Source: an uncultured Chloroflexia bacterium (GTDB lineage Bacteria > Chloroflexota > Anaerolineae > Aggregatilineales > Phototrophicaceae). From it: DNA of 64,000 bases. Shown here one piece after another: positions 36,001 through 57,078 of this stretch. A model generated the notes under the pieces. That model worked only from the letters and a program-made list of their open reading frames with translations, was not told the origin of the DNA and did no database searches. The stretch lies in the NCBI GenBank assembly GCA_963752305.1, contig CAVVXQ010000009.1, forward strand, positions 1,795,759 through 1,859,758. The letters are read 5' to 3'. The position numbers were made by a program, and so were the translations under genes. Position 1 is the stretch's first letter, and each line of letters begins with the position of its first letter.

Positions 36001-36064
36001 ACGTCTCCCCTTCTATTTTGTATACTGTCACTCGTGCGCTCAAAACCGACCAGAAAGGTGGACA

Positions 36065-37013
36065 ATGACAACACTCATCACCGGAGGAGCAGGTTTCATC
36101 GGCAGCCGCCTCGCTGACTATCTGCTCAGACACAACCAGGCGGTTGTCATCCTGGACAATTTTGATGACCTTTACGACCCAGCCATTAAACGCTCAAACA
36201 TTGCTTCACTCAATGGCTCTCCTCCTGTGATTGAGGGCGACTTGCGTGATAAAGCCCTGGTTGAGCGATTATTTAATGAGTATGGCATCACGCGAGTTGC
36301 CCACCTGGGTGGGTTGGCAAATGTGCGCAAATCCATCGAACGCGGCGATATTTATGCTGACGTCAACACCACTGGAAGCGTGTCGTTGATGAACATTGCC
36401 CGACAGCACAATGTATCAGTATTTGTACAGGCGTCTACGTCATCGGTCTATGGGCAGACAACACGTATCCCATTTTCCGAAGCGGATGAGCCGGATTTCC
36501 CACTCGCACCTTATCCCGCCAGCAAACGTGCGGCAGAAATTTTCGGCCATAGCTATCATCACATATTTGGTCTCAATGTAACCGTTCTGCGTTTTTTCAA
36601 TGTGTACGGGCCATTTGGTCGCCCGGATATGATGCCAATGAAAGCTATCGAAGCCATTCTCAATGGAGATGTCATTACCGTGTATGACGGCGGAAAACTC
36701 GAACGGGATTGGACATACATTGATGACATTGTAAGCGGAGTGGCATCTGCCCTGGAAAATCCTCTAGGTTACACGATTTTCAACATGGGATGTGGTTCTC
36801 CCATTCCATTAACCCAATTTATCCAGATTTATGAAGAACTAATCGGCAAAAAAGCCATTACTGAAGTCCGCACCCGCACCCGCAAGCGAACCCCGCATCA
36901 CCTATTGTGATAACTCGCGCGCGATGGAACTGCTTGGTTTCAACCCCCAGGTTGGTATCGAAGAAGGGTTGGCACGCACCTGGAAATGGTATCAGGCGAC
37001 CAAAATGCAATAG
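36065..37013 (+). CDS. NAD-dependent nucleotide-sugar epimerase (UDP-glucuronate 4-epimerase-like; frameshift near 36870)
   Basis: ITGGAGFIGS, STSSVYG, YPASK, LRFFNVYGP.GRPDM, RDWTY; alternative frame continues LLGFNPQVGIEEGL..W to stop 37013. Confidence 0.85.
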
Positions 37014-37049: not shown

Positions 37050-38072
37050 TTATTCGCTCAGTTTTTTCTCCAATGCCGCAATTTCATCTTCAACATTCTT
37101 CAGTAGTTTCCGAGTCATTTCTAACCCGGATTGCTGTGTAAGCGGTTTCGCCTGAATTGCGGCTATTTTTTGGCGGAATAGTGATGCAGACGCATACAAC
37201 TCACTGAGCTTCTGATTCGCTTCTGGTGTGGCATCCGGGAACGTGGGGAGAGATGTCAATAATGGGGCTGGTGGAACATCGGCCTCAGGTGTTTTCGTGG
37301 ACACGGCCTTGTTAGGTGTTGACGTGGCAGACGCAGGTGACTTTGAAGTTGTATCTTTTTGCTGCCGCTTTTTCGCCTCAAGTATTTTAGAGGTTACGTT
37401 CATGGCGAACACCGCCATGCCACCGATTTGATCGTCGAAAGCACACGTACCCTCAACAATGAGGGCATCCTCCGGGTCAGAAACGGCCTCCTCCACCTTG
37501 CGCCACTGCTTGGCGGCGATGTACACAGTATAGATTGTTGGGGTTGCTGGTGGCGTCGGAACGCCTTTAGGAAGTGTTGCCGATTTTGATGCATGAGACA
37601 TGGTGGTTATCACCAGGTCTTTGTGACTGCTATCAACCCGGCCAGGACGACCAATCAAGGTGATTTTCACAGTATTCAACACTCCTGTATCATCCAAAAG
37701 CGGCTTCAGAACTTCTACCCGTCTGTTCCAATCAAAAACTGGTCGGAGGGGTTCCGACGGCTTAGGCCGCACCTCTTTTTTACGAAAGTAACCGGGGAAA
37801 ATACGTTTCGCTTTGTCAGGGGGCATTTTATGGCGAGCGACGTAAAAGTATACACCACCCGGCGTCCGCCGACGGGATTGGTCGGGCAGCATTAAACCAC
37901 CCTCTGCCTCGATTGTCAGTGTTTCCTGGAGAATCGACTGAGCAAATTCCAAACCACAGTATTGAATGATTTCCTCGATTTGCCGACGAGGTTGATTATC
38001 CGTTTCATCAAGCGCCTGAGCAATCTGCGCTGCAACCGCCCGCCATTCGTCTTGGGACACCTGTTTCCTCAC
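37050..38072 (-). CDS. Protein with PHAX-type RNA-binding domain, central beta domain and C-terminal coiled coil
   Basis: ETLTIEAEGGL...RRRTPGGVYF matches the PHAX RNA-binding domain signature. Confidence 0.65.
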   Translation of the reverse strand: MRKQVSQDEWRAVAAQIAQALDETDNQPRRQIEEIIQYCGLEFAQSILQETLTIEAEGGLMLPDQSRRRTPGGVYFYVARHKMPPDKAKRIFPGYFRKKEVRPKPSEPLRPVFDWNRRVEVLKPLLDDTGVLNTVKITLIGRPGRVDSSHKDLVITTMSHASKSATLPKGVPTPPATPTIYTVYIAAKQWRKVEEAVSDPEDALIVEGTCAFDDQIGGMAVFAMNVTSKILEAKKRQQKDTTSKSPASATSTPNKAVSTKTPEADVPPAPLLTSLPTFPDATPEANQKLSELYASASLFRQKIAAIQAKPLTQQSGLEMTRKLLKNVEDEIAALEKKLSE

Positions 38073-38387: not shown

Positions 38388-38614
38388 TCCAACTGCCCTT
38401 GCCATCTTACACCAAGCAATTTTACCATAACGAACCCACTTAATCATATGCGCATGATACCAAAAGTGGGGGCAATATGAAACTTGGGGATAGAATCAAT
38501 CCTCAGCATAGGATAGCATAATGTGACTCCATAGCGCCTCCTCGACATTACTATCACGTTTGACCCTTCACCGGAAATGACACACCACCTGAGAGCAGAC
38601 GGTCTGGTCTAGCG

Positions 38615-38672
38615 TGCACTAATATTGCACTGCCATTGCACTGCTTCTGCACGGCTTGCACCCTTCTTGCAC
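38615..38672 (+). promoter_or_regulatory. Six phased TGCAC direct repeats upstream of the ABC operon
   Basis: TGCAC at 38615, 38626, 38637, 38648, 38657, 38668 (spacing 11,11,11,9,11). Confidence 0.7.
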
Positions 38673-38981
38673 CCCCTCCACAGCTTCCAGATGATATGTT
38701 CATTATTATGTAAAATTTTGAGCTATTTTGGCTACTAATGATGATCCTCAGTAAGTATATATATATTTTAATTCAATAAGGAGGCTCACCGGATAGTATG
38801 TATTATATTTTTGCAAGACTTAATAACACTTTTGTTTCCTTCCGTCTTCAGCCACACAAACCAGCACATAACGGCCTAACAAGCCCGTTTCCTGACAGGA
38901 AAGGCATTGATTTGCATTCTGGGTTATGGGAAGCGAATTTTGTCACGTTCGGAAGATTTTTCACATCAAGGAGACATTCAC

Positions 38982-39770
38982 ATGGCTGAGAAGTCTACCC
39001 CGGATTACGCCCTGAGAATGGTCAATATCCAGAAGAATTTCGGACTGGTTAGCGCCCTCAAAAACATCAATTTAGATGTTGAAAGCAATGAGATCGTCGG
39101 GCTTATCGGAGATAACGGCGCAGGCAAATCGACGATGGTGAAGATCCTCACAGGAGTGTTTCGACCCACCAGCGGTAATCTCTACGTCGCCGGACATCAA
39201 GTCGATCTCCAGAATTATAACGTCAAGCGGGCACACGATTATGGTATAGAAACTGTCTACCAGGATAAGTCGCTAGGTGAGAAGCAGGTTCTATGGCGAA
39301 ATCTGTTCATTGGACGCCAGATTACACGCCGGTTTGGCTTCATTGACGTAAAAAAGGAAAAGGAAATTGCTAACGAAATGATGATTAACACGATTGGATT
39401 TCGCGGCCGAGGAATAACGGTGGACTCCAAAGTGAGCAAACTTTCGGGCGGCGAACGTCAGGGGGTTGCCATTGGCCGAGCAATGCACTTTGAGGCAGAA
39501 CTTATCATTTTGGACGAGCCAACGGTTGCTCTATCGCTGAAAGAAGTCCAGAAGGTGCTCAACTTCGTCCATCAGGTGAAAGAAGCAGGCAAAGCCTGTA
39601 TCTACATTTCGCATGACCTCAAGGATGTATACGAAATTTCAGATCGATTCGTCATTATGGATCGCGGCGAAATCGTAGCGAGCATCAGCAAGAAAGATAT
39701 TACCCTCATCGCGCTGAGTGAGTTCCTGCTGCAATATGCGCATGGTCTGAAAGACAAAAAGGAATCATGA
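38982..39770 (+). CDS. Sugar ABC transporter ATP-binding protein (single NBD)
   Basis: [25 protein letters not shown]. Confidence 0.92.
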   Translation: MAEKSTPDYALRMVNIQKNFGLVSALKNINLDVESNEIVGLIGDNGAGKSTMVKILTGVFRPTSGNLYVAGHQVDLQNYNVKRAHDYGIETVYQDKSLGEKQVLWRNLFIGRQITRRFGFIDVKKEKEIANEMMINTIGFRGRGITVDSKVSKLSGGERQGVAIGRAMHFEAELIILDEPTVALSLKEVQKVLNFVHQVKEAGKACIYISHDLKDVYEISDRFVIMDRGEIVASISKKDITLIALSEFLLQYAHGLKDKKES

Positions 39771-40840
39771 CACGATTACGTTCATTACTAGTCGGCGTCG
39801 GCAAGCTGGAAGGGATTCCGGTTGCTGCTGTTTTGGCCGTCCTGTATGCGGTGTTCATTTTTACAGCACCCCAGGTCTTCACCGGGGTAGCCATTTATGC
39901 ATCGTTCCTGCAAACCGTGCCCAAGGTCCTGCTCTGCGGTCTGGGCCTAACCTTCATTATCACTGCTGGGGAGATTGATTTAAGTTTCCCAGCGGTGGTT
40001 GCCTTCTCCGGTTTCGTATTTGCATGGATATTCAAGAATTTCGACTCCCCCTTAGCGCCCTGGATTGGGCTGATTGCTGCAATCGGGGCTGGGGCACTGG
40101 TCGGGTTTGTCAATGGAATACTGGTCGCCAAAATCGGTGTTCCGTCCATCATGGCAACACTTGCCACCCAATTTTTCTGGTATGGCGTAACCGTTCTACT
40201 GGCTGGCGGCCTCAATTGGAGCATCAGCCCAATTCGCACCAACATTATGTACCAGATATTTGCGGGTCGGCTTTTTGGCGTGCTGCCTGCACAGGCACTC
40301 TGGGCATTGGGATTAACGATCTTTTTGTGGTTCATCCTGAATCGCCACACATTCGGCGAATCCATTATGTTCATCGGTGATAACCCGGATGTGGCGAGAG
40401 TGATGGGTATCAATGTCGAAGCGACCAAAATCAAGCTGTTCACCATGATGGGCGTCATGGCAGCATTCTCCGCGATTATCGTCACCATCGACATCGGCGT
40501 ATTTTATCCAACACAAGGGCAAGGATTTCTGCTGCCCGCCCTGGCCGGGGTGTTCATTGGTGGCACGTCGATTGCCGGGGGACAGGGTTCTATCATCGGC
40601 ACATTTTTTGGCGCTTATATCATCGGCTCACTTGAAGCTGGAGTGGTTGCCACTGGAATCAGCGGTTACTGGGTTCAGTTGGTAGAAGGGGTTGTCATGG
40701 CGGCATCTGTCACACTCAACATCGTCATAGAGGACGGACGCCTTAATGCATTTCGCAACCGAATCCGTCATTGGAGTGTACCTGCGCGTTCAAACACCAC
40801 CGATGTGGTGTCGAAACGGGACGATATGGCGGTCAAATAG
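39767..40840 (+). CDS. Sugar ABC transporter permease (RbsC-like)
   Basis: GEIDLS, PSIMATL, IGDN..AR.MGI, IGGTS..GG.G. Confidence 0.92.
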   Translation: MTRLRSLLVGVGKLEGIPVAAVLAVLYAVFIFTAPQVFTGVAIYASFLQTVPKVLLCGLGLTFIITAGEIDLSFPAVVAFSGFVFAWIFKNFDSPLAPWIGLIAAIGAGALVGFVNGILVAKIGVPSIMATLATQFFWYGVTVLLAGGLNWSISPIRTNIMYQIFAGRLFGVLPAQALWALGLTIFLWFILNRHTFGESIMFIGDNPDVARVMGINVEATKIKLFTMMGVMAAFSAIIVTIDIGVFYPTQGQGFLLPALAGVFIGGTSIAGGQGSIIGTFFGAYIIGSLEAGVVATGISGYWVQLVEGVVMAASVTLNIVIEDGRLNAFRNRIRHWSVPARSNTTDVVSKRDDMAVK

Positions 40841-40965
40841 ATCGCTAATCGTTCGACTCATTGTTCGTGAGGGAGAACCATTAGAAAAGGAGGAACACTA
40901 TTCCAGATAAAAGCCGAGACAGGTCACATTTATCTTAAACAGATTGACTAGAAAAGGAGATAAGA

Positions 40966-41964
40966 ATGAAGCGTTCTTTTAAATTACCAGCCCTTGTCAT
41001 GATTCTTGCTTTGGCGTTGCTCACCGTACAGTTAGGGCTACTTCCGGCTGCTGCACAGGATCAACCCCAACTGACCGTCTACATGCAGATGGGCGGTACT
41101 CAGGGCGATCCTTCGACACTGGCGCGAACCAACGGCGCAGAAGCTGCCGCAGCAGCACTAGGCATTAACCTGATTGAGCAGTATTCCGGCTGGGACCCAC
41201 AGACCATGCTTGACCAATTCAAGCAGGCGGTTGCGGCCCATCCAGACGGTATCGTCATCATGGGACATCCGGGAGAAGATGCCTTCACACCGCTGGTTGA
41301 AGACGCCGAAAGTCAGGGCATCATCATCACCAGTGGCAACAATCCACTCCCAACCCTTGAGGCAGAATACAAGAATAACGGATTTGGCTACGCCGGAGCA
41401 GACCTGTATGACGGTGGTCATCTCACTGGCGAGGCGATGGTCAAAGCCGGACTGCAAGCTGGCGATGAAGCGGTCATCTATGACATCTGGCACAATGAGG
41501 GACGCGCACTGAGTTCACAGGGTATGTATGATGCGCTCACGGAAGCCGGAGTGGTTGTAGACAAACTCGATGTTTCCAACGAAGTAGACGGTGATGCTTC
41601 ATTGGGCATTCCTGTGCTCACGGGCTACATCGCTGCCCATCCCGATCTTAAAGCCATTGGAACCCAGCATGGTAATGTCACCGCCATCATTCCGAATGTT
41701 CTCCAATCGTCAGGGAAACAACCCGGTGACATCATCGTCGGTGGTATTGATCTTTCGCCCGCAACGGTGGAGGGTATTTCCAGCGGCTACATCAGCGTGA
41801 GTTTCGATCAGGAACTCTACCTGCAAGGTTGGCTGCCGGTACAACAAATCTTCATGACCAAGAACTACCTGATTCCAGGTCTTCATGTCAATACCGGCGT
41901 TGGCATTGTCACGCCTGACAATGTTGCCGATATTTCGGCTCTCATCGAACAGGGTGTACGCTAA
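40966..41964 (+). CDS. Sugar ABC transporter substrate-binding protein
   Basis: Signal peptide, PDGIV, GGIDL...GYI..DQ..YLQG. Confidence 0.88.
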   Translation: MKRSFKLPALVMILALALLTVQLGLLPAAAQDQPQLTVYMQMGGTQGDPSTLARTNGAEAAAAALGINLIEQYSGWDPQTMLDQFKQAVAAHPDGIVIMGHPGEDAFTPLVEDAESQGIIITSGNNPLPTLEAEYKNNGFGYAGADLYDGGHLTGEAMVKAGLQAGDEAVIYDIWHNEGRALSSQGMYDALTEAGVVVDKLDVSNEVDGDASLGIPVLTGYIAAHPDLKAIGTQHGNVTAIIPNVLQSSGKQPGDIIVGGIDLSPATVEGISSGYISVSFDQELYLQGWLPVQQIFMTKNYLIPGLHVNTGVGIVTPDNVADISALIEQGVR

Positions 41965-42043: not shown

Positions 42044-42078
42044 GGGGTGTTGGTGGCAATACCAACACCCCATTTTTA
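42044..42078. terminator. Intrinsic terminator between the convergent ABC operons
   Basis: ggggtgttggt-ggcaat-accaacacccc + attttt. Confidence 0.75.
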
Positions 42079-43926
42079 TTATGAACTCACATGTACCTGA
42101 TGCGCTACTGGCGAGGCGTCATAACGCAGGTTTAGTTGAGGGCGCTGCACATAAAGAAAATCTACAATGAGATCGACAGCATGTTTGAGGTCATAAAAAT
42201 ATTGACGGCGGCTTAGTCCAAGATTCTGGCAAATTACTTCAACAGCCCATTGTTCAATAAACGTATGCTTTAACAACTGATAACGGCGTGCTGCGCGCAG
42301 GTCGGAAGTCGCGGACTGCGGCAAGATGTGTTCAATGGCATCGTACAAAATTTCCCGCAGCACGTCGCTTCTTGTCGTCAGATCATTGATTTGAAGCCAG
42401 TTGGCAAGCGCACAGTGATGTAAAAAGACATCATCGTTTAAATTGCGCAGACATTCACGAACCTGTTGTGTCAACCAACCACTTTCCAACAACCAGCGAT
42501 CTTCAATGTCAGTCGCCATTTGCGTCGCCAGCAAGGCAACACTTTCCAATGCCTGTGGAGTAAAAGCGTTTATGATGGAACTTTGAACTTCGATCACACC
42601 GATTACTCGCTTGTTATGTTGGATAGGAACTGCTGCCGCAGCACGAGTAGAAGATTTCCACGACACAACAGAATCATCCTGCTCACGCTTAAGATCGTTA
42701 TGGAAGATCGTTTTCGCGGCCGAGAATGAATTCAAGGTCAACAACCCATCGGGCGATGCTCGACTGTGAGGCTCGATCAGATTGTCGGACTCTCGGTCAT
42801 GCAAATAAACGCGAATTTCGTCATAGTCAAAACGTGTCCGTATGGTGTTCATCAACTGATTGAGCGATTCGTCCAATGGCATAAATGGCTCAATCGTCGG
42901 TGGGGATAACCTTCGCACGGGAGTCGGCGTTGATTCCTGCAAACGCCGCCGCTGGACATCAATCAAAGCGGCGGTGATGATGAGCGCGCCTGTGATGGCT
43001 TCCTTCCAAAGCGGCGGAATACTGATAAGCACCAGACCATTACTGACCAGCGAAATCAATAACACGCCAGCCAACGTACCCCATACACCACCGGTACCTC
43101 CCTTCAAGCTGGTTCCACCGATGATGACGGCAGCAATCGACAACATTTCATAGTTCTCCCCACTATGAAATGTACCACCGGCTATCCGCGCCAGTAAAAA
43201 CAACCCGGCCAATCCGCCAAGAAAACCGCTGATCGCATAGATGATTTGCAGGCTACGTTCCACATCAACGCCACTTAACCGAGTGACCGTCTCATTATTG
43301 CCTATAGCATAGGTATAGCGTCCAAGCCGGGTATTCCGTAACATAAACGCACCCAGGATGAACAATAATGCCATCACCAGCGCTGGTATGGGAATAATGC
43401 CAAACGCATTGTTCCATAACCAATCAAAATCATTGGTTCGCAGATTGATAGCCGAGCCGTTAGAAATTACCTGGGCAAGTCCGCGCAGCAAACTCAGTGA
43501 GCCGAAAGTGACAATAAACGGGGCAAGTTTAAAGCGCGTGATAAAAACGCCATGCAGCCAACCAATCCCGGTGGCAATAAACAGGCCAACAGCAGCAGCT
43601 ATCCAGGGATTCACATGCCCCAGGCCATTACCCAGATTGGTCGTGGTCAGATAAGCGATAATCACTCCGGTGAGCGCCATCATTGAGCCGATGGATAAAT
43701 CGACGCCGCCCGTCAGGATAACGAGTGTCTGCCCAATACTGACAATACCGACAGTCGCCATCGTGATTGCCAGAATTTGCAGGTTGCCAACAATCCCAAA
43801 TTGCAGGGCTTTGGTGACAAAGATGAGCAACAGAATGGTCAGCGTAAAAACCACGATTAAATCGCGCGGGTGAATCTGAGCCGAGCGCAGTTCTCGTTTG
43901 TTTACGTTGAGATTTCGGCTATTCAT
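42079..43926 (-). CDS. RbsC-like ABC permease fused to GAF domain and C-terminal HTH DNA-binding domain
   Basis: GGVDLS, PFIVT, IGNN..RLSGV, IIGGTSL.GG.G permease motifs; AVPI...RVIGVIEVQS...AFT GAF motif; EVICQNLGLSRRQYFYDLKHA helix-turn-helix; single uninterrupted frame. Confidence 0.85.
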   Translation of the reverse strand: MNSRNLNVNKRELRSAQIHPRDLIVVFTLTILLLIFVTKALQFGIVGNLQILAITMATVGIVSIGQTLVILTGGVDLSIGSMMALTGVIIAYLTTTNLGNGLGHVNPWIAAAVGLFIATGIGWLHGVFITRFKLAPFIVTFGSLSLLRGLAQVISNGSAINLRTNDFDWLWNNAFGIIPIPALVMALLFILGAFMLRNTRLGRYTYAIGNNETVTRLSGVDVERSLQIIYAISGFLGGLAGLFLLARIAGGTFHSGENYEMLSIAAVIIGGTSLKGGTGGVWGTLAGVLLISLVSNGLVLISIPPLWKEAITGALIITAALIDVQRRRLQESTPTPVRRLSPPTIEPFMPLDESLNQLMNTIRTRFDYDEIRVYLHDRESDNLIEPHSRASPDGLLTLNSFSAAKTIFHNDLKREQDDSVVSWKSSTRAAAAVPIQHNKRVIGVIEVQSSIINAFTPQALESVALLATQMATDIEDRWLLESGWLTQQVRECLRNLNDDVFLHHCALANWLQINDLTTRSDVLREILYDAIEHILPQSATSDLRAARRYQLLKHTFIEQWAVEVICQNLGLSRRQYFYDLKHAVDLIVDFLYVQRPQLNLRYDASPVAHQVHVSS

Positions 43927-45405
43927 TAGCCTCTCCCATTGCGTAATACAGCAGCGATTCCTCGGTGATTTGATTTCGTTCAAGTGACTGAATGAGATGA
44001 CCCGAACGCATGACCAGTGCGCGGTCACATAATCCGACAATTTCTGTCAACTCCGAACTAATCACCAGGATGGCGCTGCCCTGGCTGGCAAGCTCACCTA
44101 GCAAACGATAAATCTCAATTTTTGTTCCAATATCAATACCCTTTGTGGGTTCATCAAAAATCAGAATACGCGGGTGTACCGCTAACCAACGAGAAAGGAT
44201 AATTTTTTGTTGTGTCCCGCCGGAAAGATAGCGGGCTTTAGCCTCCGGATTAGGAATTTTGATTTGCAATTTTTCCATATAACGTTTAACCAACTGATGC
44301 TCTGCCTGCTGGCTGATGAGCGAGCCAGCCTTCCCCAGTTGGGTGAGTGTGATATTCTCCCGCGCGGTCATATCCAAAAGCATGGCCTGTTCCTGGCGAT
44401 TTTCGGGTAACAGCCCAATGCCAGCCGCAACCGCATCACGCGGCGATTGGATGGAAACGGGTTTCCCATCAATGAAAATAACGCCACTGTCAGGTGTATC
44501 CAGACCGAAAATACTGCGTACCAGAGCGGTACGTCCCGAACCGACCAATCCGGCAAGTCCAACAATTTCACCCGCACGCAGTTCAAAGGACACATCTTCA
44601 AAAGTTGGATGGCGGGTTAATCCTTCTACCCGTAATACTTCAGCGCCGGGAAGGCCGGGGCTGCGTGTAACATTTCGGGTTAGGGTTTTGCCAAGCATCA
44701 ACTGGATTAAATGGTTGGTGGTAACAGCCGCCGAGTTAATCGTCGCCATCCGGCGTCCATCCCGCAGCACGGTCACACGATCTGCAATTTCGAGTATCTC
44801 GGCGGAGCGATGGCTGATATAGATGACACCGATACCACTCACGGTCACACGCCGGATAATCTCAAACAGCGTCCTCACTTCACGATCCGAGAGAGCGGCG
44901 GTGGGTTCATCCATCAACAGCAGTTTGGGACGAACGTATAAAGTTTTTGCGAACCCAATCATTTGCTGCTCTGCCACACTCAGTTTGGAAACCTTTGCAT
45001 CTGGATCGATTTTCATATCGAGCATTCGCAGTATTTCCTGCGTCTGACTGCGCATTTTCCGCCAGTCAATGAATGGCAAATACCGTTTTTGTGGCTCAGA
45101 ACCCAGAAAAATATTTTCGGCGACGGTGGATTCAGTCAATAAATTAAATTCCTGATAAAGTGTGTGAATTCCGGCAAGTTTAAAGTCCTGGGAGAGTTGA
45201 AAAAAACTGGCTTGCCTTCAAAGTAAATGCTGCCGTCGTCGGGTTGATATACGCCACCGATGAGTTTAATGAGTGTGGATTTGCCCGCGCCGTTTTCGCC
45301 AACAAGAGCATGAACCTCACCCGCCTGAACACCAAAATCGACTTGATAAAGGGCTTGCACGCCAGGGAAAGATTTCGATACGCCGCGTACTTCCAAGAGT
45401 GTCAT
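43919..45405 (-). CDS. RbsA-like twin-NBD ABC ATPase (frameshifted near 45140-45200)
   Basis: GENGAGKST in ORF 45136-45405; [33 protein letters not shown] in ORF 43919-45139. Confidence 0.88.
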
Positions 45406-45558
45406 CGGTATTCATCCTGATAACCTCAATAGTCATCATTTTAACCAGATTATGTGATTCCTGTCTAATAGGCTGCCTTTCGCCGCCGCATGGTCGCCCG
45501 ACAATATTGTGATAAATGACTAACATTGTGGGTTTATGGCACAGCCTGGAACGGTGCC

Positions 45559-46665
45559 CTATGGCGCTCCTGATGGCAGTCCATTATCCATCTCTGGCGA
45601 ACCAGCAACCGGGGAAGTCCAGGTTTCACCAGCGACATAGGCGTCCAGATTGGATGCATCAACCACAACCGACGGAGTTAGAATAAATTGGGGGACTGCC
45701 TCACCATGAAATACTTTGTTCATGGTATCTATGACGGTCTGCCCCATGCGCATGGGGTCAACCCCCAGCGTGGCGGTGTATCGACCTTCCCGAATCAAAT
45801 CCAGGGTGGGGCTGTTTCCATCAATCGAAAGCACAAAGAAATCTTTGTTGATCTGCAATCCCAATTGTTCGGCAGCCAATGCCGCCCCAATTCCCATTTC
45901 ATCGCTGTTGCTATAGAACACGTCAATGTCGGGGGTACGCTGCAACGCGGCAGTGGCGACATTCGCGCCCATCTCACGATCCCATTCAGCAGTTTGCTCG
46001 CCAACCACCTCTACATCTGGGCACATGGACAATCCCGCGATGTAACCCTGCGTACGACGATGGGTATGAAAGCCTTCAATACCCAGCAAGATATAGACCT
46101 TGCCCTTCGCCTGTTCAGGGGTCGTGCCGTCCTTTTGCGCCAACACCTGACAGGTATATTCGCCAAGCTGCGCCGCGCCCTGCCACTGGTCGTAACCGAT
46201 GTAAGCTGTCACATGCCCATCTGGGAGCGGAGTCAATGAGTTGTGTATGAAAACCAGGACATTCCGGGCATTGGCGGCTTTCACCACTGGGACAATTGCT
46301 TCGGCCTGCAGCGAGTTGATGCTGACCGCTTCAATGCCCATTTCCAAAAGCTGTTGAATGATGGTGATCTGACCATCAAAGTCACTTTCGCTGCTAGTCG
46401 TCTGTACCTCAACCTTCCAGCCCAAACTTGCCCCATCGGTTCTGGCAGCATCAGAAATTGCCACATGAAAAGGACTGGTCATGCCAGGGGGAACAATGGC
46501 GACATAGTGAAAGTTCCCGTTAGCGACGGCCTGCAGTACAGCAGTTTCGGGCGACGGAGCGGCCTGAGAGGCAATCAACCACACAAAAATGACCAGAATA
46601 GTTATGAGAATAATTGTGCTTGTCGATAAAATACGTAATTTGCGCTGCACCCCCGAGTCCTCCAA
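45559..46665 (-). CDS. RbsB-like sugar-binding protein with N-terminal membrane anchor
   Basis: N-terminal [33 protein letters not shown]. Confidence 0.88.
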
Positions 46666-46852: not shown

Positions 46853-47043
46853 ATGCTTGCAACCATTCATGCGTGCGCCCTCGTTGGCATTGAAGGTTCT
46901 ATTGTTGACGTCGAAGTTGATTTCAATCCCCGCGCAGGCATCCCTGCATTTACGATTGTCGGCTTGCCGGACACGGCTGTTAAAGAGAGCCGGGAGCGCG
47001 TTCGGGCGGCTATCAAGAACAGCCATTTGAGTTTTCCGAACAA
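46853..47043 (+). pseudogene. comM: 5' fragment of comM/YifB left by element integration (attL side)
   Basis: MLATIHACALVGIEG.IVDVEVD...[26 protein letters not shown], then homology stops. Confidence 0.88.
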
Positions 47044-49274
47044 GGTTCAACCTGTACAGTTAATGGTGCCTCTGCCAATTCATGATCTCCTTGAGCCGTA
47101 TCAGCGTTCTGCTGTTGCACATACTCCACATAGGTCAACCGTTGATTGATGCCACCCCCAATGCGTGGGACACGAGTTCCTTTACCAAACAGTTCCTTGA
47201 TTCGGGACTGAATTTGTATCCAGCGTCGGTAGGGAAATTCTTGCATAATCTCTAACTGTGATGCTTGACGCTCTACCATTGCTCGAAGAATCGCAAGTTC
47301 TTCGTCGCGCCAGTAGGAACCACTTGCCTTCCCTTTTCTGCCCCCACTTGCGACATAGTCATTGTAGGTTTCATGCTTTCCAAGCCAGCTTGGGGTAAAC
47401 CGTACCAGTCCTCGGTGTTTGCGTATTTCAGCGCTAATTTGACACCATTGCAGTGTAGGAAAAACCTCCGCAATGTCAAGTTGAGATGCCCCAGAATCAA
47501 GCAGGCTCAGTAGGCGTAGGACATGTTCATGAGTCCACCGTTCCCCATGCGGCTTATGCCAGAGGGAAATCTCATCCGAACTTCCATCTTTCCACCGCAC
47601 TGTGAGCGTCATATCACCTGCGCGCGAGTAATCCGAGGCCTCAATACGTTGGATAAAGAGATTGAGAATATTCTTGCGTTCATCTTGGCTCATCCGATCC
47701 CACTCTAAAACCGCGTGTTCAAATAGGGCGTGTGCTTGTTCCAACGATACGTGCTTCTGGCGTTTGACATCCAGCGTAGCCAACTCTTTTTCCAGGCGTT
47801 GCTTCTCCTGTTCCATTCGGGTATAGCGCTGCTCAACCTCTTGAATTAAGGTAGGATGTGTCAAGGTTTTGAGGCTTATCACGAGGTTTTGCATTTCATC
47901 GCTGAGCGAGCCAAGCTGCAAGCGCTTCAATTTGCGCTCACGCTCCATGGCCTGCTGCGTCTCATCAATCGCCTGCTTCCAGGCACTGGTATCGAGTGTC
48001 GCCAGGAGTTTTTGCTTAAAGCAACCCACGACTGCCTCATCCACCCAGGCGCTGCGCCGCGCCCACAGGGTCACCGTTCCCTCGAGCTCTGGACGACGTT
48101 GTACATAGAGGTAACACCCTTCCCGCTTCGGATACATGTATCCTGCCCGATACCATTTGTGGTTTGTGCGGGTATAGATCAGGCCGGTGAGGAGCGGCGG
48201 CTCTGCACGGCGCGAGACCTCCCTAGGCTGACGAACATAGGGATAGGCGGGCTGATAGTTGTCGTTTTCTTCACCCGTCAACGTGTATGGAGACAGCATG
48301 TTAAAGACCGCAAAGAACGTGTCGAGATCAACGATCGGGGCATGGTTGTTCCAGCACTGCACAACTCCTTTGTAACACCAGTGTCCGACATAAACGGGAT
48401 TGGTGAGAAGGCAAATGAAGTTTTGGCGTGTAAGAAAGCTCCCCTCGCCGCGATTGCGTAGGTGATAGACGGTTTTGAAACCGTCGGGTGGCGGAAGATT
48501 TGGATAGGGAAAACTCAGTCCCAAGTCTCGAATTTGGTACATCGTCCTGCGAATTGCGCCACCATTCTCTCGCAACAGTCGGAAGTACTCGCGTACGATT
48601 TGCGCGTATGGTTCAAAGGGTACGAACTTGCGCCAGTTGGGGTTGTCGTCTCCGGTAGGGAGTTGTTTTCGCATATCTACCATGTATCCTACCGGCATGT
48701 GTGCCCCGGCCCACTTGCCTTCCAACAACAAACGCCTACGGGCAGGTGCGAGCCGACCCAAAACGTAGCTGTTGAGATACTCGGCGGCCATGTCGCATTT
48801 GAAGCGAAACTGTCGGGCGTGGAATTCACCGTGTTGGGGATGGGCAAAATCGTAGGTAAAAAATGGGGTAATGACGCAAACTTGCGATTTGCGACAGGTA
48901 TCAATGAAGATGTTGACTTGAATCTGGGTCATGTCCCGAAACAAGCGATCTTCATCCTGACAAGCAACCGCCGCGATTTTGTGATCCGCAATCAGCTCAA
49001 ACAGGTAGCTCATACCCTTGCGTTCATCAATGCGCTTCGTGCCACTCACCCCTTCGTCATCATCAATCAAGATGATCTTCTCTTTCTCCCAACCGCGCCG
49101 TTCCAGTTCCTCCACCATGTCAATGGTTTGGATACTCGTAGAGATGTTACCTACTTGCGCGGTCGTGGATTGGCGATAGTACACGGCTATAGGTTCTTGC
49201 GTGAGTTGTTGCTCGGAGCGTAATGCTTTATGCCCGCCGTTATTCTCCCGGCGAAATGTGCGTTTCTTACTCAT
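47013..49274 (-). CDS. Large serine recombinase (integrase) with C-terminal Myb/SANT-like repeats
   Basis: VYYRQST catalytic Ser, GVSG..R, DRLFR, PVGY, LTNPVYVG, H.PIVD, LLTGLI, coiled coil, ILNLFIQRI. Confidence 0.9.
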   Translation of the reverse strand: MSKKRTFRRENNGGHKALRSEQQLTQEPIAVYYRQSTTAQVGNISTSIQTIDMVEELERRGWEKEKIILIDDDEGVSGTKRIDERKGMSYLFELIADHKIAAVACQDEDRLFRDMTQIQVNIFIDTCRKSQVCVITPFFTYDFAHPQHGEFHARQFRFKCDMAAEYLNSYVLGRLAPARRRLLLEGKWAGAHMPVGYMVDMRKQLPTGDDNPNWRKFVPFEPYAQIVREYFRLLRENGGAIRRTMYQIRDLGLSFPYPNLPPPDGFKTVYHLRNRGEGSFLTRQNFICLLTNPVYVGHWCYKGVVQCWNNHAPIVDLDTFFAVFNMLSPYTLTGEENDNYQPAYPYVRQPREVSRRAEPPLLTGLIYTRTNHKWYRAGYMYPKREGCYLYVQRRPELEGTVTLWARRSAWVDEAVVGCFKQKLLATLDTSAWKQAIDETQQAMERERKLKRLQLGSLSDEMQNLVISLKTLTHPTLIQEVEQRYTRMEQEKQRLEKELATLDVKRQKHVSLEQAHALFEHAVLEWDRMSQDERKNILNLFIQRIEASDYSRAGDMTLTVRWKDGSSDEISLWHKPHGERWTHEHVLRLLSLLDSGASQLDIAEVFPTLQWCQISAEIRKHRGLVRFTPSWLGKHETYNDYVASGGRKGKASGSYWRDEELAILRAMVERQASQLEIMQEFPYRRWIQIQSRIKELFGKGTRVPRIGGGINQRLTYVEYVQQQNADTAQGDHELAEAPLTVQVEPCSENSNGCS

Positions 49275-49405
49275 CTGCTACCTCCTCTACCGGTTCTCTA
49301 CACTCTAGTGCGTGGGGATGCTGGCGCAGATACGCCTTCAGTGTAGGTCTTCAAACCAAATCGGACAGGAGAGGTCAGAAAATAAGGGAGACATCTCCAG
49401 TATTT

Positions 49406-50407
49406 TTACCCTGAATAGAGTCCAGCTTGCAAATACTGCTCACGGCGGTGTTGAAGGGTCTGTTGCTTAATCCTTTCTCGCTGGGTTGTCACCTGCGTAT
49501 AGCGTCCAAAGAACATATCGGCTGGGGTCACGTTGTTCAGCGCTTCATGATAGCGCTGGTGGTTGTAGTAGCGCACGAAACTGGCAATGGCCTGTTCCAG
49601 TTCGGATGGCGAATAGTACAGGTCGAGTTTGACAAGCGACTTCATCGAGCGATGGTAGCGCTCGATCTTGCCCTGGGTCTGGGGATGGTAGGGTGCGCCG
49701 CGAATGTGATCCATCTGGTAGTGCTTGAGATACTTTTTCAGCGCATCGGAGACAAAAGCGGGGCCATTATCCGACAGCAGCCGGGGGCGATGGCGAACTT
49801 TGATGTGCTGGACACCTGTTTTTGCCACCGCAATGTTGAGGGTTTCCTCGACATCGGTGCTGCCCATGGTGGCAGCCAGTCTCCAGGCGAGGATGTAGCG
49901 CGAATAGTCGTCCAGCACGGTGCAGAGATAGTAATAGCCCCAATCGACGACCTTGAACTGGGTGAAGTCGGTCTGCCACAGTTCGTTGACCCGTTTGGTC
50001 GGTTGGTCGAATTGATCCTTGGCGCTCACGATCTGAAACACCGGACTGGTGACCAGATCATAGCCCTTCAGGATGCGATACACGCTCAATTCGCTGATGA
50101 AATAACCCTGGGTGTCGGTCAGATGCCAGGCTAACTGGCGCGGTGACAGCTCGGTTTTCTCCAGCGCCACATCCACCACCTGCTCACGCACACTGCCGGG
50201 AATGTGATTCCAGAACTGCTGTCGCTGGGGCTGCCGATCCGCCAGACCGTCGTAACCCGCCTCGGCATAGCGCCGATACCAGTCGTAGAAGGTACTGCGT
50301 GGCACCTCCAGTTCCGCCAGGGTTTGCTTGACCGGTAGGTCGGATGTCTCCACCAGACGGATAATCTCCATCTTCTCAGCCTGCGAATAACGCGTCATGC
50401 GTCCCAC
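49406..50407 (-). CDS. IS3-family transposase OrfB (DDE integrase core)
   Basis: WQTDFT, LDDYSR, SDNG, PQTQGKIER, YN..R.H. Confidence 0.93.
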   Translation of the reverse strand: MGRMTRYSQAEKMEIIRLVETSDLPVKQTLAELEVPRSTFYDWYRRYAEAGYDGLADRQPQRQQFWNHIPGSVREQVVDVALEKTELSPRQLAWHLTDTQGYFISELSVYRILKGYDLVTSPVFQIVSAKDQFDQPTKRVNELWQTDFTQFKVVDWGYYYLCTVLDDYSRYILAWRLAATMGSTDVEETLNIAVAKTGVQHIKVRHRPRLLSDNGPAFVSDALKKYLKHYQMDHIRGAPYHPQTQGKIERYHRSMKSLVKLDLYYSPSELEQAIASFVRYYNHQRYHEALNNVTPADMFFGRYTQVTTQRERIKQQTLQHRREQYLQAGLYSG

Positions 50408-50757
50408 TCGTTCTCCAAACCGGTCAGACTTTTTTTCAGCACCCGGTTCTTCAGCGCTAACTCGGCCACCAACTGCTTGAGTTGGGCGTTCTCTTCCCGC
50501 AGCTCATCCACATCGTCACTGTTGGCTTGACGCTTCGTGTCGCCCGCTAAGCGTGACTTGCCCGCCTCCAGAAATTCTTTGCTCCATTTGTAGTAAAGGC
50601 TCTGCGCGATCCCTTCCCGGCGGCATACTTCAGCGATGGTTTCTTCCCCGCGCAAGCCTTCTAGCACGATGCGGATCTTCTCCTCCGCGCTATGCTGTCG
50701 TCGGGTCTGGCGACGGATGTCCTTCACGGTTACTTCGGCGGATACTTTCTTGCCCAT
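50395..50757 (-). CDS. IS3-family transposase OrfA (HTH + leucine zipper)
   Basis: SAEEKIRIV, IAEVCRREGI..YYKW, LREEN..LK, LKK. Confidence 0.92.
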   Translation of the reverse strand: MGKKVSAEVTVKDIRRQTRRQHSAEEKIRIVLEGLRGEETIAEVCRREGIAQSLYYKWSKEFLEAGKSRLAGDTKRQANSDDVDELREENAQLKQLVAELALKNRVLKKSLTGLENEWDA

Positions 50758-50844
50758 TTGCTTTCTCCTTTATGGTCTCCAATGGGTGGAAAGTCTCCTT
50801 TATTTTAGCCTATCTCCGTGTCTGAGTGGGTCTGAAACGGAACA

Positions 50845-51014
50845 CTGCCACTTGTAGATCAGGCTCGGCGTAATGTCTAAATCGCGCTCAATCTTGCTGA
50901 CACTCCGCCCTCCCGCTTCCACCATTGCCAGCACTTCTTGTAGTTTCCCCTTTCCTGCTCCTTGCCTTCAGTCTAACGGACATTTCTGCTCCCCGCTAAA
51001 CTGGGGTAAGACCA
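50845..51014 (-). mobile_element. Truncated remnant of a second IS3-family element (left end + start of orfA)
   Basis: TGGTCTTACCCCAG... terminus at 51014; residual RSVSKIERDLDITPSLIYKWQ HTH cut by the intact IS. Confidence 0.6.
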
Positions 51015-51392
51015 TCGTTTTCGGCATTTCCGGGTCCAATAAAAATCGCCTAGCAATTCTGACCTTAAGTAATCAGATACTGGTCTCGACGTTCCATTTA
51101 ACTACCACTTGTAGTAGAAAATTCGTGGGTGCGTTACAAACTACATCGGGTGGATGCCACTATACATCAGGCATACTTTACATTTGTCGGGTTTATTGTA
51201 ACTATTTATATGTGGACGGTTCTTTCCACTTTTCTTTCGGACACCTAGCAAAGTGGTGCAACTTGGTGCTGGCTACCTGAGTGCGGCTTTTCCCTTTTCG
51301 AGCCAGCGAAAAAAGGAGAAGTCAAAGGACGTTCCATCACATATAAACGGGCTGCCAGAGCGGTAGTCCGTTTTCAAACATGCTACTAAACA

Positions 51393-52299
51393 TCAATTAA
51401 GAGGCTGGGTCCGTTCTTCTCCGGCCACTGACCAGATTGGATGATTCAAAATCGTTTTTTGTGACAGGTGGGAATGGACTGCAAACCAAAACCGCCGCTT
51501 CCCTCCTACACTTTCGGTGGCTCCTTTGAGAACTCTCTAATCGCCGCTCACCACCGGTGACTGTGAGGACGCGCATACTCTTACTATGGAAGCGCTGCTC
51601 GTATCGCCCAGTTGCATAATAGGACGCATAGGCTAACACCTTTGTCTTAAAAACCCGGAGCGTTTCTGTGCCTCGATCCAGTTCCAAAAAGAAATGTGCG
51701 TACCCATTGGGTGTTTTGAGAATAAAGTAACTATCAGGAATGAGAGACACGAGATGTGTTCTACCCGATGGCGTACGAATGGGGACACGATCGTAGCTCG
51801 CCTTCAGTTCCGTTTCATTTACCCACTTGAGAAGTTCATATCCTGCCGCTTCTGCCGCTTTGGTGAAAGTAAGGCGTATATCATTGATCGCTAATGTGTG
51901 TTCCAAAAACTCCTGCTTAAGCTCCTTGCTGCTGGAATACCACACCAGATCATCAAGGTTATACTCCGTACGCAACAATTCTGCCCCCCTGCGATCAAGC
52001 ACATAGAGGGTCGGGCTGTTCCATCCTCGTGTCGACAGGAATTTGCGTTCCAGAAATCCATGATCGTAGAGCCGTACCAAGACACGCTGCATGACACTGC
52101 GGCTACGGTCAAATAGTGTTTCAAGCTGATCCTGCCGCAGAACGCGATGGGTATAAATGGTGTAAATGATTGCCTTATCCCGCTCGGTCAGTCTCATGTT
52201 CGGGGGGTGGTTGACCCGGCGGTCAGAGCGCCTCCGTTTCGGTATCGTTGTATTCATCTCTTTGTCCCCTGAACTTTGGTGTTCATGATCTATTCGCAT
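51393..52299 (-). CDS. Replication-relaxation family protein (wHTH + PD-(D/E)XK-like relaxase; frameshift near 51530)
   Basis: LTERD..I, HTLAI, IPDSYF...FFLELDRGTE...K...Y; alternative frame ends RFWF...PIW..stop at 51393. Confidence 0.82.
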
Positions 52300-52588
52300 A
52301 TTCCATGCCCATGCATTACGCTCGTGTAGCTCAAGTATACCGCCGCATAAGTCGTTGGTGATGAATACTTATGAGCAGGCGAGCAACTCTATGCGGTGAC
52401 ATTCTCTCGCAAATACATCGACACAATAACTGGACTGTCATGATTTCAAATTGTCGCACGCATAGGTATGTATCAGATGGATCACAGGCGATAAATATGT
52501 CGTCCACCTTCGCTGGCCCTTGAGAGATGATGGGGATGATACAAACATAGTATATACGATGCATCACCCCCTCTCCCGTCGGACAGAA

Positions 52589-54892
52589 CTATTTGCCGAT
52601 GTACGATGCCTCTTCTGAGATTGGGTCGTAGAGTTCTTCCGCTATCTCTTGGTTGTCCAGTTGCGCGTACCGCTTTTGCAGCCACGAAAGCACATCCGAT
52701 TGACTCTTTGGTGTGTAGTATTGGATAGACAGTTGGCGAATGCGTTCTGCCCGTCGCTCAGCCTCTTCATGCGGTATGCGGGGCGGTGTCGCCATCAGAC
52801 TGAATGCTGGTTGCTGCTGCCCCTGATAGCGCAGCCACACGGCGGCTTGAAACTTGTCCAAGTTCAACAAGTCCTCCGCACTAAAGTGTGGGCGGGTATA
52901 GTGAGCAAGCTCGCGTGCGTCGTCATCACCACCGGACTGGAAGGCAACTACCATGCCCACATTCCCTTTAACGGCATTCCATGTACTTCCTTGCAGTTGC
53001 TTCAAGTATTGATTTGCAAGGGTCAGCGAGAGATTGAACTTGCGAGCTTCCGAGAATAAAGTGTCCATCGTACTGGTCGTGAAGTGTTGCGTTTCATCCA
53101 CATAGGCATAGACTGGCGAACCTTTGGCTGCCCCATGCATGATCGCGGCCTGCAGACAAGTCACGATCAATGAACCAATCAACTGTTGTTCCCGGCTAGG
53201 AATGCGCTCATCCGAGGTCTTGAGGGATACCAGAATTATCTTGCGCTGGCGGATGAGGGTGGCGAAGTCGAGTCCATCCGGATGACATAAAACTGTGCGG
53301 ATCGCCTTATTGCGATAGAAGGTGCGGATCCGTCGGGTTACGGGGCCGCTTACCTGTCGCTGCTGGCTGTCTGACATCGCACCGAAGTCATTTCGCCAAA
53401 ACTCTTGGGTGACATCATCTTCGACCTGTCGCAGTAAGTTGGTGCGGTAGCCCGCGTCAAGGAACAACCGATTGACATCCCAAAGCGTAGCCTCTGAATC
53501 ACTCTGAAGTGCCAGTAATGCATTTTCCAGCGCATCGCTGGTTTGCGGCATGTCTTTTAGATCAGGATATAAGCCATACAGAACGTCCAATATCCGCCCG
53601 AGTCCCACATCGTCGTGTAACCCACGCATGGGATTAAGCGGGAGTGGATAGTCGGAATTTCCAAGATCAAGCAGTACCACATCGCGCTCGCGGTGCTCGG
53701 GAATACTGGTTCGCAGAACCTGATCTACCAACGTTCCATGGGGATCAATCACGATCACACCGTTGTGGCGCATAATGTCCTGATGGATCAATTGGTGCAG
53801 GAAGTTGCTCTTCCCTACTCCGGCTTTGCCAACCACTAAGCAGTGGGTGCGGCGGTCTTCATCGGGCAGATACACCGGTTCACTACGTCCAGCATACTGG
53901 TTTGTACCAATGCAAAGGCCGTTGCGTTTGCCTTTGAACACTTGCGGTAGTTCCACCTGTGCGGTCTTCGTCCAGGCAATCGTGGTCGCCTGAAACTCAC
54001 GATGTGGTAGATGCCACAGTGCACCAATTTCTCGTGGTTCCAGGACTAGCCGCGTATCTCGGCGCTGCTTCTGGAGTGCCTTAGTCTGTTTCGATGGCAG
54101 TCCAAGCGTCAGGTATGTACCAAGTGCGCTGGTCAACAGGTCGGTTTCATCGTCACCCACATGAGCGACTTCGAGTTGTCCATTCCCTCCATACCATCGA
54201 ATACCGTTGTACGAGGCTTCATCAAAGTGAATGGTCTGATTGTCGATAGAAAGCAGTATATCCAACCGCTCTGGATAGGGACTGTCAATCTGAATCATAA
54301 CGCTGCACTGATACAGGGCGCGTTGCAACTTGTCCACAAATACTCTCTGATCCTCGGGGACATACCGGTCTACTTTCTGTGGGAACAGAAAACCGAGTAA
54401 TGATCCATCGTACACATTGCGCTTAATCCGCTGGGTTCCTTCGGTATATGCATCTGGCAGCAATCCGGTGACAAACACGGTATAGATGATCTGCTCACCC
54501 GGTTGCAATCCGGTCATCGTTTGGGTGAGAGCAGCCAACGGATCAGCAGAAGGCTTGATACCCTCAACATGTTTGATGGGAGCAACAAACTCTGGCACTA
54601 GATAGCCATAGGGAATAAGCAGTCGATGAGTTACCCCGTCGTTCTGCCGACAGTCAACCAGCGTGTCAATGCGGATATTCGCCTCCGGGTAGGTTGCCTG
54701 TATCGCGGTTCGCATTCCTTCGGGCTCGCGCTCCAATAGGTCAATGATTTGCCATTCAACATAAGAAGCACGGGCCACGATACGAAAGAGGAGCGAGTTG
54801 TAGCCATACAGGAGTTGTTCGATGAGGTGAGAGGCGCGTTGCGCCTCCCACTCATTCCGTTTAGGAACGGTGATCGTATACACTAAAATCAT
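52589..54892 (-). CDS. Type IV coupling protein / HerA-FtsK-like ATPase
   Basis: H.LVVGKAGVGKS, VIDPHG.L, YVDETQHF, SEARKF, ANQY..QL, GNVG. Confidence 0.85.
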   Translation of the reverse strand: MILVYTITVPKRNEWEAQRASHLIEQLLYGYNSLLFRIVARASYVEWQIIDLLEREPEGMRTAIQATYPEANIRIDTLVDCRQNDGVTHRLLIPYGYLVPEFVAPIKHVEGIKPSADPLAALTQTMTGLQPGEQIIYTVFVTGLLPDAYTEGTQRIKRNVYDGSLLGFLFPQKVDRYVPEDQRVFVDKLQRALYQCSVMIQIDSPYPERLDILLSIDNQTIHFDEASYNGIRWYGGNGQLEVAHVGDDETDLLTSALGTYLTLGLPSKQTKALQKQRRDTRLVLEPREIGALWHLPHREFQATTIAWTKTAQVELPQVFKGKRNGLCIGTNQYAGRSEPVYLPDEDRRTHCLVVGKAGVGKSNFLHQLIHQDIMRHNGVIVIDPHGTLVDQVLRTSIPEHRERDVVLLDLGNSDYPLPLNPMRGLHDDVGLGRILDVLYGLYPDLKDMPQTSDALENALLALQSDSEATLWDVNRLFLDAGYRTNLLRQVEDDVTQEFWRNDFGAMSDSQQRQVSGPVTRRIRTFYRNKAIRTVLCHPDGLDFATLIRQRKIILVSLKTSDERIPSREQQLIGSLIVTCLQAAIMHGAAKGSPVYAYVDETQHFTTSTMDTLFSEARKFNLSLTLANQYLKQLQGSTWNAVKGNVGMVVAFQSGGDDDARELAHYTRPHFSAEDLLNLDKFQAAVWLRYQGQQQPAFSLMATPPRIPHEEAERRAERIRQLSIQYYTPKSQSDVLSWLQKRYAQLDNQEIAEELYDPISEEASYIGK

Positions 54893-54902
54893 GGCATCCG
54901 TC

Positions 54903-57036: not shown

Positions 57037-57078
57037 ACAATAGTCAGTAGAGACAAATAATTAGTCTGGAAGTCAAAC

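Follow-up and report, generated by a model that had tools for sequence, protein, structure and literature searches.

A sugar-type ABC permease fused to GAF and predicted helix-turn-helix domains in Chloroflexota, and its candidate operator

Genes and features at the locus

We examined a 64,000-nucleotide stretch, hereafter the window, from an uncultured Chloroflexia bacterium of the Phototrophicaceae (GenBank assembly GCA_963752305.1, contig CAVVXQ010000009.1, positions 1,795,759 to 1,859,758). It carries two converging operons for ATP-binding cassette (ABC) importers of sugar type. In one of them, the sensor cassette, the permease gene runs on into a GAF domain and a helical module with a predicted helix-turn-helix (HTH); this gene is called the fusion. 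A preliminary description, made from the sequence alone, had proposed that the cassette controls the second operon, called here the target operon. The features of the locus are listed below with their evidence (ORF, open reading frame; AF2, AlphaFold2 model).

45559..46665, minus strand: SBP1, RbsB-like solute-binding protein (SBP); start probably GTG 46651 (Pfam, profiles)
43919..45405, minus strand: ATP1, RbsA-type ATPase with two nucleotide-binding domains (NBDs), frameshifted at 45190-45192 in this assembly (ORF reading, homologs)
42079..43926, minus strand: fusion gene, permease-linker-GAF-helical/HTH, 615 aa (ORF reading, Pfam, homologs, AF2)
42970..43773, minus strand: RbsC-type permease domain, residues 52-319, with the conserved cytoplasmic coupling-loop motif (Pfam, alignments)
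42877..42933, minus strand: Pro-rich linker, residues about 332-350, variable in length, low confidence (alignment, AF2)
42511..42876, minus strand: GAF domain, residues 351-472 (Pfam, Foldseek)
42127..42504, minus strand: helical output module, residues about 475-600, with an invariant WL..GW and a sigma4-like HTH (alignments, AF2, fold search)
42184-42213, minus strand: recognition helix SRRQYFYDLK of the HTH (alignments)
42044..42071, no strand: 12-pair terminator-like hairpin between the converging operons (hairpin scan)
40966..41964, plus strand: SBP2, Peripla_BP_4 solute-binding protein, target operon gene 3 (Pfam, NCBIfam)
39767..40840, plus strand: PERM2, CUT2 permease without an extra domain, target operon gene 2 (ORF, Pfam, NCBIfam)
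38982..39770, plus strand: ATP2, single-NBD ABC ATPase, target operon gene 1 (ORF, Pfam, NCBIfam)
38692..38700, plus strand: predicted extended -10 element (TG-A-TATGTT), 28 bp after the start of the last operator box (inferred from sequence)
38614..38673, plus strand: candidate operator, six direct repeats (T/C/G)TGCAC(T/G/C) (weight matrix, by eye)

The converging sugar ABC operon at 38982-41964 was confirmed, as was the statement that no other regulator adjoins the cassette or the target operon (Pfam, within the window). The claim of a complete RbsB/RbsA/RbsC cassette with its ATPase motifs stood in part. Every ATP1 motif is encoded in the DNA, yet the motifs are spread across two frames and the ATPase is not one ORF: Walker A lies in the frame that begins at ATG 45405, the remainder in the ORF 43919-45139, and the frame switches at a C-run at 45190-45192. 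In relatives such as G604 and G563 ATP1 is about 500 aa long and intact, and the seven relatives compared read through in frame. Because eight of 71 gene loci in this assembly show frame changes against same-order homologs (10 of 73 gene rows before duplicates were removed), the ATP1 frameshift is likely an assembly error. In the three DNA read sets used, all of low share, no reads span this site or the fusion junction.

An SBP, a two-NBD ATPase and a BPD_transp_2 permease encoded together make up the gene set of a CUT2 (RbsABC-type) importer; loci L107 and L123 are exceptions. The NCBIfam equivalog cut-offs were not reached (193 of 398 bits for RbsC, 501 of 745 for RbsA using the ATP1 of a relative, and 95 of 337 for RbsB), and with respect to ligand no SBP equivalog was reached in NCBIfam. 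Among the ATPases listed, which include seven ordinary paralogs, Walker A (GxNGAGKST) is present in 41 of 42 and the NBD1 DEPT motif in all 42. K43, D167, E168 and H200 are invariant in 32 aligned ATP1 sequences, and 86 SBP1 positions are at least 95% conserved across 38 sequences. Two loci encode a 679-aa SBP with two tandem SBP1-like domains (L164:4558-6594 and L167:7538-9574).

Domain structure of the fusion protein

The fusion is read in a single frame from ATG 43926 to the stop at 42079, and its ATG overlaps the 3' end of ATP1. Pfam matched BPD_transp_2 at residues 52-319 (E 2.7e-33) and GAF at residues 351-472 (E 4.8e-8). A full-length AF2 model from 53 sequences reached a predicted local distance difference test score (pLDDT) of 82, with permease, linker, GAF and helical C-terminus visible and pLDDT below 50 at linker residues 332-339. 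Foldseek with this model returned GAF domains and BtuC, and a phmmer library search returned mostly multi-GAF proteins. The invariant WL..GW sits at the junction of the GAF domain and the following helix.

The C-terminal 127 aa, modelled alone, gave a pLDDT of 93, with helices at 71-85, 90-97 and 101-126. The closest folds among 48,161 chains were nearly all sigma region-4 or HTH domains, including SigL (Z 8.2, root-mean-square deviation 3.1, 74 aligned) and BldN (Z 7.5, root-mean-square deviation 1.1, 59 aligned). Sigma region 4 alone was matched, over model residues of about 42-127; residues 1-41 were barely covered, and Pfam gave no match to sigma region 2 in the module. Foldseek with the module found no structure at E ≤ 0.001, and the sequence profile of the module found no solved relative (best E 0.43). 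Weak matches to HTH-clan Pfam families at E ≤ 0.1 were seen for DUF1492 in 48 of 49 members and for Sigma70_r4 and HTH_23 in 21 of 49 each. With the HTH assigned by fold and by these weak profile matches, transmembrane helices and an HTH occur in one ORF. No phosphorelay partner was found: the fusion has no Pfam match to HisKA or HATPase and no REC or kinase domain, and no kinase cluster is common to fusion loci. The preliminary description of permease, GAF and HTH in one frame thus held in the ORF, the Pfam matches, the AF2 models and the sigma4-like fold neighbours, as did its proposal that the C-terminus folds as an HTH.

Conservation and distribution of the fusion

A search with residues 340-615 returned 66 proteins at 32-90% identity, 62 of which carry the permease family, and the fusion is present in 25 other genomes; it is therefore not the product of an indel, an explanation that had been raised earlier. 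The profile of the HTH module gave 242 matches, with the permease present in 108 of the 120 listed. Of six short matches inspected, five begin within the permease and look like fragments. Across Chloroflexota the architecture is conserved: it occurs in at least 26 of the order's 382 genomes (six candidates were scored per genome, hence the lower bound; the copy in G572 is broken) and in 36 metagenome stretches. Source names of the matches were Phototrophicaceae, Aggregatilineales, Anaerolineae and Anaerolineales. Outside the order, 401 genomes of the class and 401 of the phylum were sampled and the best 6-10 candidates in each were scored; no fusion was found among these, despite some database matches named Anaerolineales. 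L047 and L077, considered as fusions, proved to be tandem permeases; the contig scan was otherwise dominated by ordinary permeases.

Residues S572-R-R-Q-Y-F-Y578 and K581 are invariant in alignments of 53 and 49 sequences. At 18 loci with all six genes, mean pairwise identity within the fusion was 96.8% for the recognition helix, 54.5% for the HTH, 47% for the helical part, 53.6% for the permease and 34.9% for the GAF domain, its least conserved part. The values were 52.6% for ATP1 and 61.8% for SBP1, and 81.7%, 68.8% and 78.0% for ATP2, PERM2 and SBP2. In the same loci the sensor genes thus diverge faster (53-62%) than the target genes (69-82%). The dN/dS ratio of the HTH module was 0.02-0.08 in seven of nine pairs and saturated in two; by these sequence comparisons the module is under purifying selection.

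A candidate operator upstream of the partner operon

The preliminary description had named phased upstream repeats as a feature to look for, and the stretch 38600-38690 as a place where the C-terminal domain might bind. Six boxes lie inside that stretch, at 38614-38673, starting at 38614, 38625, 38636, 38647, 38656 and 38667 (spacing 11, 11, 11, 9 and 11), and such repeats track the fusion across genomes. The array adjoins the upstream side of the predicted promoter of the target operon. Thirteen metagenome loci with 63 boxes served to train a weight matrix, which was then applied to genome loci. In this genome the array scored 54.3, the runner-up site 29.8 and the Markov control at most 23.9.

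PERM2 occurs in 50 of 382 genomes, 32 of which lack the fusion when all candidates are scored with the HTH profile; best E in these was 1e-17, compared with 1e-45 to 1e-50 for true fusions. All 19 fusion genomes tested for an array before ATP2 had one (scores 31.4-57.7), including three with fusion and operon on different contigs. Among 30 genomes without the fusion and with enough upstream DNA (two were too short and were dropped), 27 scored at most 16.9 and three scored 31.5-53.0. Two of these exceptions, G447 and G761, which the array alone had singled out, have a sensor-clade ATPase cut by a contig end; the DNA in G761 shares 99.2% identity with fusion locus L105 and continues into the start of the permease. 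G761 also has a full array (53.5) divergent from ATP1 and followed by an apparent insertion sequence (IS) transposase (L292, on contig C26), and a comparable array precedes the target operon, which lies on a different contig. On a PERM2 tree (47 rows, two short rows omitted) the array state changes 11 times, at least seven of them forced. Six independent tree pairs gave 5.6 in the same direction and 0 in the opposite one (sign test, p about 0.03).

Over the window together with 61 fusion loci, a set that includes the training loci and some near-duplicates, 38 arrays scored at least 25. All 38 directly precede a sugar ABC operon, of four kinds (29 before ATP2, seven before an RbsA paralog, one before an SBP1-led operon and one before a CUT1 SBP), and none was seen elsewhere in this set. 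An array-led target is visible in 23 of the 26 fusion genomes. At L173, the broken G572 locus, the fusion is in pieces, ATP1 has no Walker A in frame and the array is degenerate (34.3), which may reflect joint decay or assembly errors.

The sequence TAnnnT starts at +37/38 after the last box in 25 of 38 arrays and at +28 in nine, and TTGA is found at +14 in 14. All boxes lie upstream of the -35/-10 pair in 25 arrays, the last box covers the -35 in nine, and none lies over the -10 or downstream of it. Boxes just upstream of the -35 or replacing it are the geometry of an activator, and extended -10 elements are typical of activator-dependent promoters. A sigma-70 scan found no consensus promoter at the array.

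An exact pattern scanned across the order matched in 18 of the 26 fusion genomes, in one of them at an unrelated site, and in 34 of the 356 others, against about 30 of 382 with the reversed control; the pattern was tuned on known arrays, and only its chance-level background is informative. All 13 non-fusion matches that were re-scored reached at most 28.6. Other TGCAC-rich sites in this genome were considered as a regulon and set aside, as most belong to a dispersed palindromic repeat of about 70 bp (about 12 sites on contigs C6 and C9 of G000, beginning TCTGCACAA with TGTGCAATTGCA at the centre). This family resembles repetitive extragenic palindromes and is distinct from the operator.

Relatives of the HTH module

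The same helical/HTH module is N-terminal in REC proteins of about 420 aa and C-terminal in HisKA_7TM-GAF proteins of about 650 aa; both kinds match the fusion profile, at E 1e-9 to 1e-22. The REC-type relatives (L084-L088, L244-L254, L256, L257, L261) are from Chloroflexota, several of them beside sugar ABC genes. Among those with an SRRQ helix, the script detected three perfect repeats of GTGCC or GCGCC, phased at 10-11 bp, in four of five loci, the repeats of L087 being visible by eye only; on the opposite strand GTGCC/GCGCC reads TGGCAC, one base off TTGCAC. Several with an S(E/V/L)RQxYR helix show TGAC repeats. The repeats seem to follow the recognition helix, as a possible recognition code would. 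Helices of the response-regulator type read SRRQYYRE or SERQxYRD where the fusion has SRRQYFYD, and the boxes in the putative code would be TTGCAC, TGGCAC and TGTCA. In the repeat script, seven of 17 loci of these response-regulator-type relatives beat all 10 shuffles and 10 did not.

One HisKA_7TM-GAF-HTH protein is encoded about 29 kb before the window (G000:C9:1764855-1766783), and others at L255 and L258. In the loci inspected these proteins, of about 640-700 aa, lie upstream of an S1-domain rpsA-like gene, and most of the genomes searched contain ORFs of about this length that match the module. They are a candidate second membrane one-component regulator.

Partner operons and origin of the cassette

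The proposed co-occurrence with a second ABC operon was found in several gene orders, with the sensor trio convergent, divergent or co-directional to its partner. Seven loci have an ordinary RbsA/RbsC pair as partner instead, with an SBP1 homolog after it where the contig extends that far, and L097 has a CUT1 operon. In a quick tree of 68 ATPases, in which four fusion-linked members had been mislabelled by a distance rule, the fusion-linked ATP1 proteins form one clade (SH-aLRT support 99), and its sister (89) consists of ordinary RbsA paralogs, which are the array targets in those seven loci. This sister relationship suggests an origin by duplication: the cassette likely obtained its ATPase and permease genes as copies of those in an ordinary RbsABC-type importer, which shares SBP1. 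The sensor was likely re-wired later to other operons by movement of the array.

Three loci with RbsA-type partners adjoin ribulokinase, with AraD-like and L-arabinose- or fucose-isomerase-like genes, the only hint of a ligand. This genome has no close match to ribulokinase or AraD at E ≤ 1e-20, so the pentose hint comes from another lineage. These gene neighbours point to a pentose or related sugar as the likely ligand, and SBP1 and SBP2 are predicted to share theirs. At loci that lack the fusion, a LacI-like palindrome (TTGCGCTAACA) or a gene with a LacI-like N-terminus (by eye; L218-L225, L233, L234) often stands before the importer operon; we read this as replacement of the regulator.

Proposed mechanism and alternatives

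On balance, we favour the view that the fusion, SBP1 and ATP1 form a membrane-bound sugar sensor that would act on the partner operon through the TTGCAC repeats. That the fused HTH reads the array, and that regulation runs through it, is predicted with high confidence. Activation of the partner uptake operon is quite likely, because the boxes either stop just short of the -35 hexamer, on its upstream side, or take its place at an extended -10 promoter. The signalling step is the weakest part of the proposal, and for it we lean modestly towards SBP1 docking and the ATP1 cycle. SBP1 loaded with a monosaccharide would dock on the permease dimer, and the ATP1-driven conformational cycle would change how the two tethered GAF-HTH arms pair or how available they are. 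The arms would then load head-to-tail on four to six boxes and recruit polymerase. The intact motor in relatives, the high conservation of SBP1, the invariant WL..GW and the faster divergence than that of the target importer favour this use of the ABC cycle.

More broadly, the evidence tilts slightly towards a duplicated ABC importer that has become an ATP-powered receptor, read directly by an activator built onto its permease. It would be portable to at least four kinds of operon, with an HTH from an undescribed Chloroflexota family and a readable helix-to-repeat code. Taken jointly with this, and at the same slight preference, the receptor would work with no kinase and no soluble regulator, and possibly with little net transport.

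Several observations weigh against these proposals. The ATP1 copy in this genome is frameshifted. Fusion and array are present at L107 and L123 with no RbsA-type ATP1 adjoining; given these two loci a dedicated ATPase may be dispensable, and both (L107:6342-8572 and L123) keep the coupling loop of the permease despite its absence. The fused HTH falls under every Pfam cut-off, and the Z values of the module are middling, in a range that the fold tool deems common for helical domains. The flexible, variable linker disfavours a rigid mechanical relay. The motif was first seen by eye in all loci, and the held-out test is therefore only partly independent. G754 (87% complete) has a partial array (31.5) and SBP1, and neither a fusion nor a sensor-clade ATPase was found in it. 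Three of the 26 fusion genomes have no visible array-led target: G604, where the contig ends, G735 and G741.

The signal might instead be chemical, with the same regulator and operator: the cassette would import a little sugar, and the sugar or a metabolite would bind the GAF domain and switch the HTH. GAF is a ligand-binding fold, all transport motifs are kept, and a flexible linker fits diffusion better than mechanics. The low conservation of the GAF domain beside that of SBP1 weighs mildly against this route, and its conserved columns read as a generic core rather than a pocket. We regard it as unlikely.

The sign of regulation could also be reversed, with a membrane-tethered repressor that sits on the array when idle and releases it on arrival of sugar. 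The last box does cover the -35 in nine arrays, and the LacI-like elements that often precede the operon where the fusion is missing make repression a known route there. The nine overlapping cases, however, include extended -10 promoters, and the 25 arrays wholly upstream of the -35/-10 pair, with none over the -10 or downstream, make a repressor quite improbable.

It is very unlikely that the ABC parts are simply a working importer, with a GAF-HTH part that is constitutive or released by proteolysis at the linker and uncoupled from transport. The linker is exposed and of low confidence, the module also occurs in REC and HisKA_7TM-GAF proteins, and one protein (P0073) starts at the GAF domain. 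The fusion is nevertheless kept in 108 of 120 listed homologs, and five of the six short ones inspected are fragments with permease helices. A second, more conserved importer alongside makes a pure transport role redundant.

Still less probable is an unlinked regulator, inherited together with the cassette, that would bind the array in place of the fused HTH, which would then have another role. Genes of ROK type (L152) and of DeoR/SorC type (L175) do adjoin the target operon, each at one locus, but no other gene is common to fusion loci, the array follows the fusion across four target types with at least seven forced changes on the permease tree, and helices that are related have related boxes. 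An assembly or read-through artefact, conceivable in an assembly as rich in indels as this one (eight of 71 tested gene loci frameshifted), is refuted by the same fusion in well over 100 independent protein clusters (32-90% identity) and 25 other genomes.

Other features in the window

A putative comM/YifB-like gene at 46853-58610 is interrupted by an element of 10.2 kb, which has an exact direct repeat of 41 bp (46970-47010 and 57196-57236). The element contains the following genes.

47013-49274: serine recombinase
49406-50757: IS-like transposase pair
51397-52299: Replic_Relax protein

Two further genes lie on the other side of the target operon.

37050-38072, minus strand: 340-aa protein with a PHAX RNA-binding domain (PF10258, E 6e-19; Pfam)
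35984-36910, plus strand: NAD-dependent epimerase; Pfam match ends before the family C-terminus

The PHAX domain is linked to export of small nuclear RNA in eukaryotes. The epimerase is possibly another assembly frameshift.

Comparison with known systems

If the proposal is correct, an ABC importer serves as the sensor of a one-component transcription factor, and membrane-bound regulators, transporter co-sensing and SBP-dependent sensing are joined in one polypeptide. Whether transporters signal through conformation, flux or imported ligand is a long-standing question; it becomes testable here because the input (SBP, ATPase), the output (HTH) and the operator are defined and separately mutable. 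For a Chloroflexota HTH module that is widespread but unannotated, the locus would also supply a first predicted binding site, and it could serve as a compact template for biosensors programmed through the SBP.

A description of a permease-GAF-HTH fusion was not found in the literature searched, with most subscription journals outside its reach. By definition the fusion is a transmembrane one-component regulator; it is the input module, a complete ABC importer, and the operator that we did not find described. Like ToxR, CadC and BcrR, it combines membrane helices and a DNA-binding domain in one polypeptide and is predicted to act on a nearby promoter from the membrane. Unlike theirs, its sensor is the whole membrane domain of an ABC importer with its own SBP and ATPase, and its HTH is C-terminal and sigma4-like. 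The supplement of one survey has five unrelated single proteins with BPD_transp_1 and none with BPD_transp_2 (PMC10269533). A Pfam-based screen of that kind would likely miss the sub-threshold HTH of the fusion.

SBP1, ATP1 and the permease domain match the families of RbsABC, AraFGH and AlsBAC (CUT2), under the equivalog cut-offs, whereas the fusion carries about 290 extra C-terminal residues (GAF and HTH module). The Anaerolineae HisKA_7TM-GAF-HTH and HTH-REC proteins have the same helical/HTH module, with input domain, recognition helix and repeat sequence unlike those of the fusion.

In E. coli MalFGK2-MalT, as proposed here, the state of an ABC importer controls a transcription activator for genes of sugar uptake. 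The activator there, MalT, is a soluble STAND protein in its own right, which MalK holds at the idle transporter (PMC10427625) and which is released on transport. In the fusion the predicted activator domain is joined covalently to the permease, and its dedicated cassette is distinct from the importer that it would regulate. CbrA/CrbS (SLC5-STAC-histidine kinase) and Ks-Amt5 (Amt-histidine kinase) likewise join a transporter fold to a signalling output, and CbrA is reported still to transport (PMC7096432). These are secondary carriers or channels that feed two-component phosphorelays, whereas the fusion is of the primary, ATP-driven importer type with a predicted direct DNA output and no kinase.

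Prokaryotic transceptors are described as rare in an account of an S-component/5TMR case (PMC11109136), and SBP-stimulated receptors named in another source include chemoreceptors, kinases and cyclases (PMC8050422). Parallels in layout are the SBP-dependent three-component sugar sensors CuaDSR (PMC10384115) and XylFII-LytS/YesN. In each, as proposed for this locus, one SBP is devoted to sensing and lies next to a regulated ABC importer that uses an SBP of its own. The sensing SBP of those systems docks onto a histidine kinase, whereas SBP1 is predicted to dock on an ABC permease.

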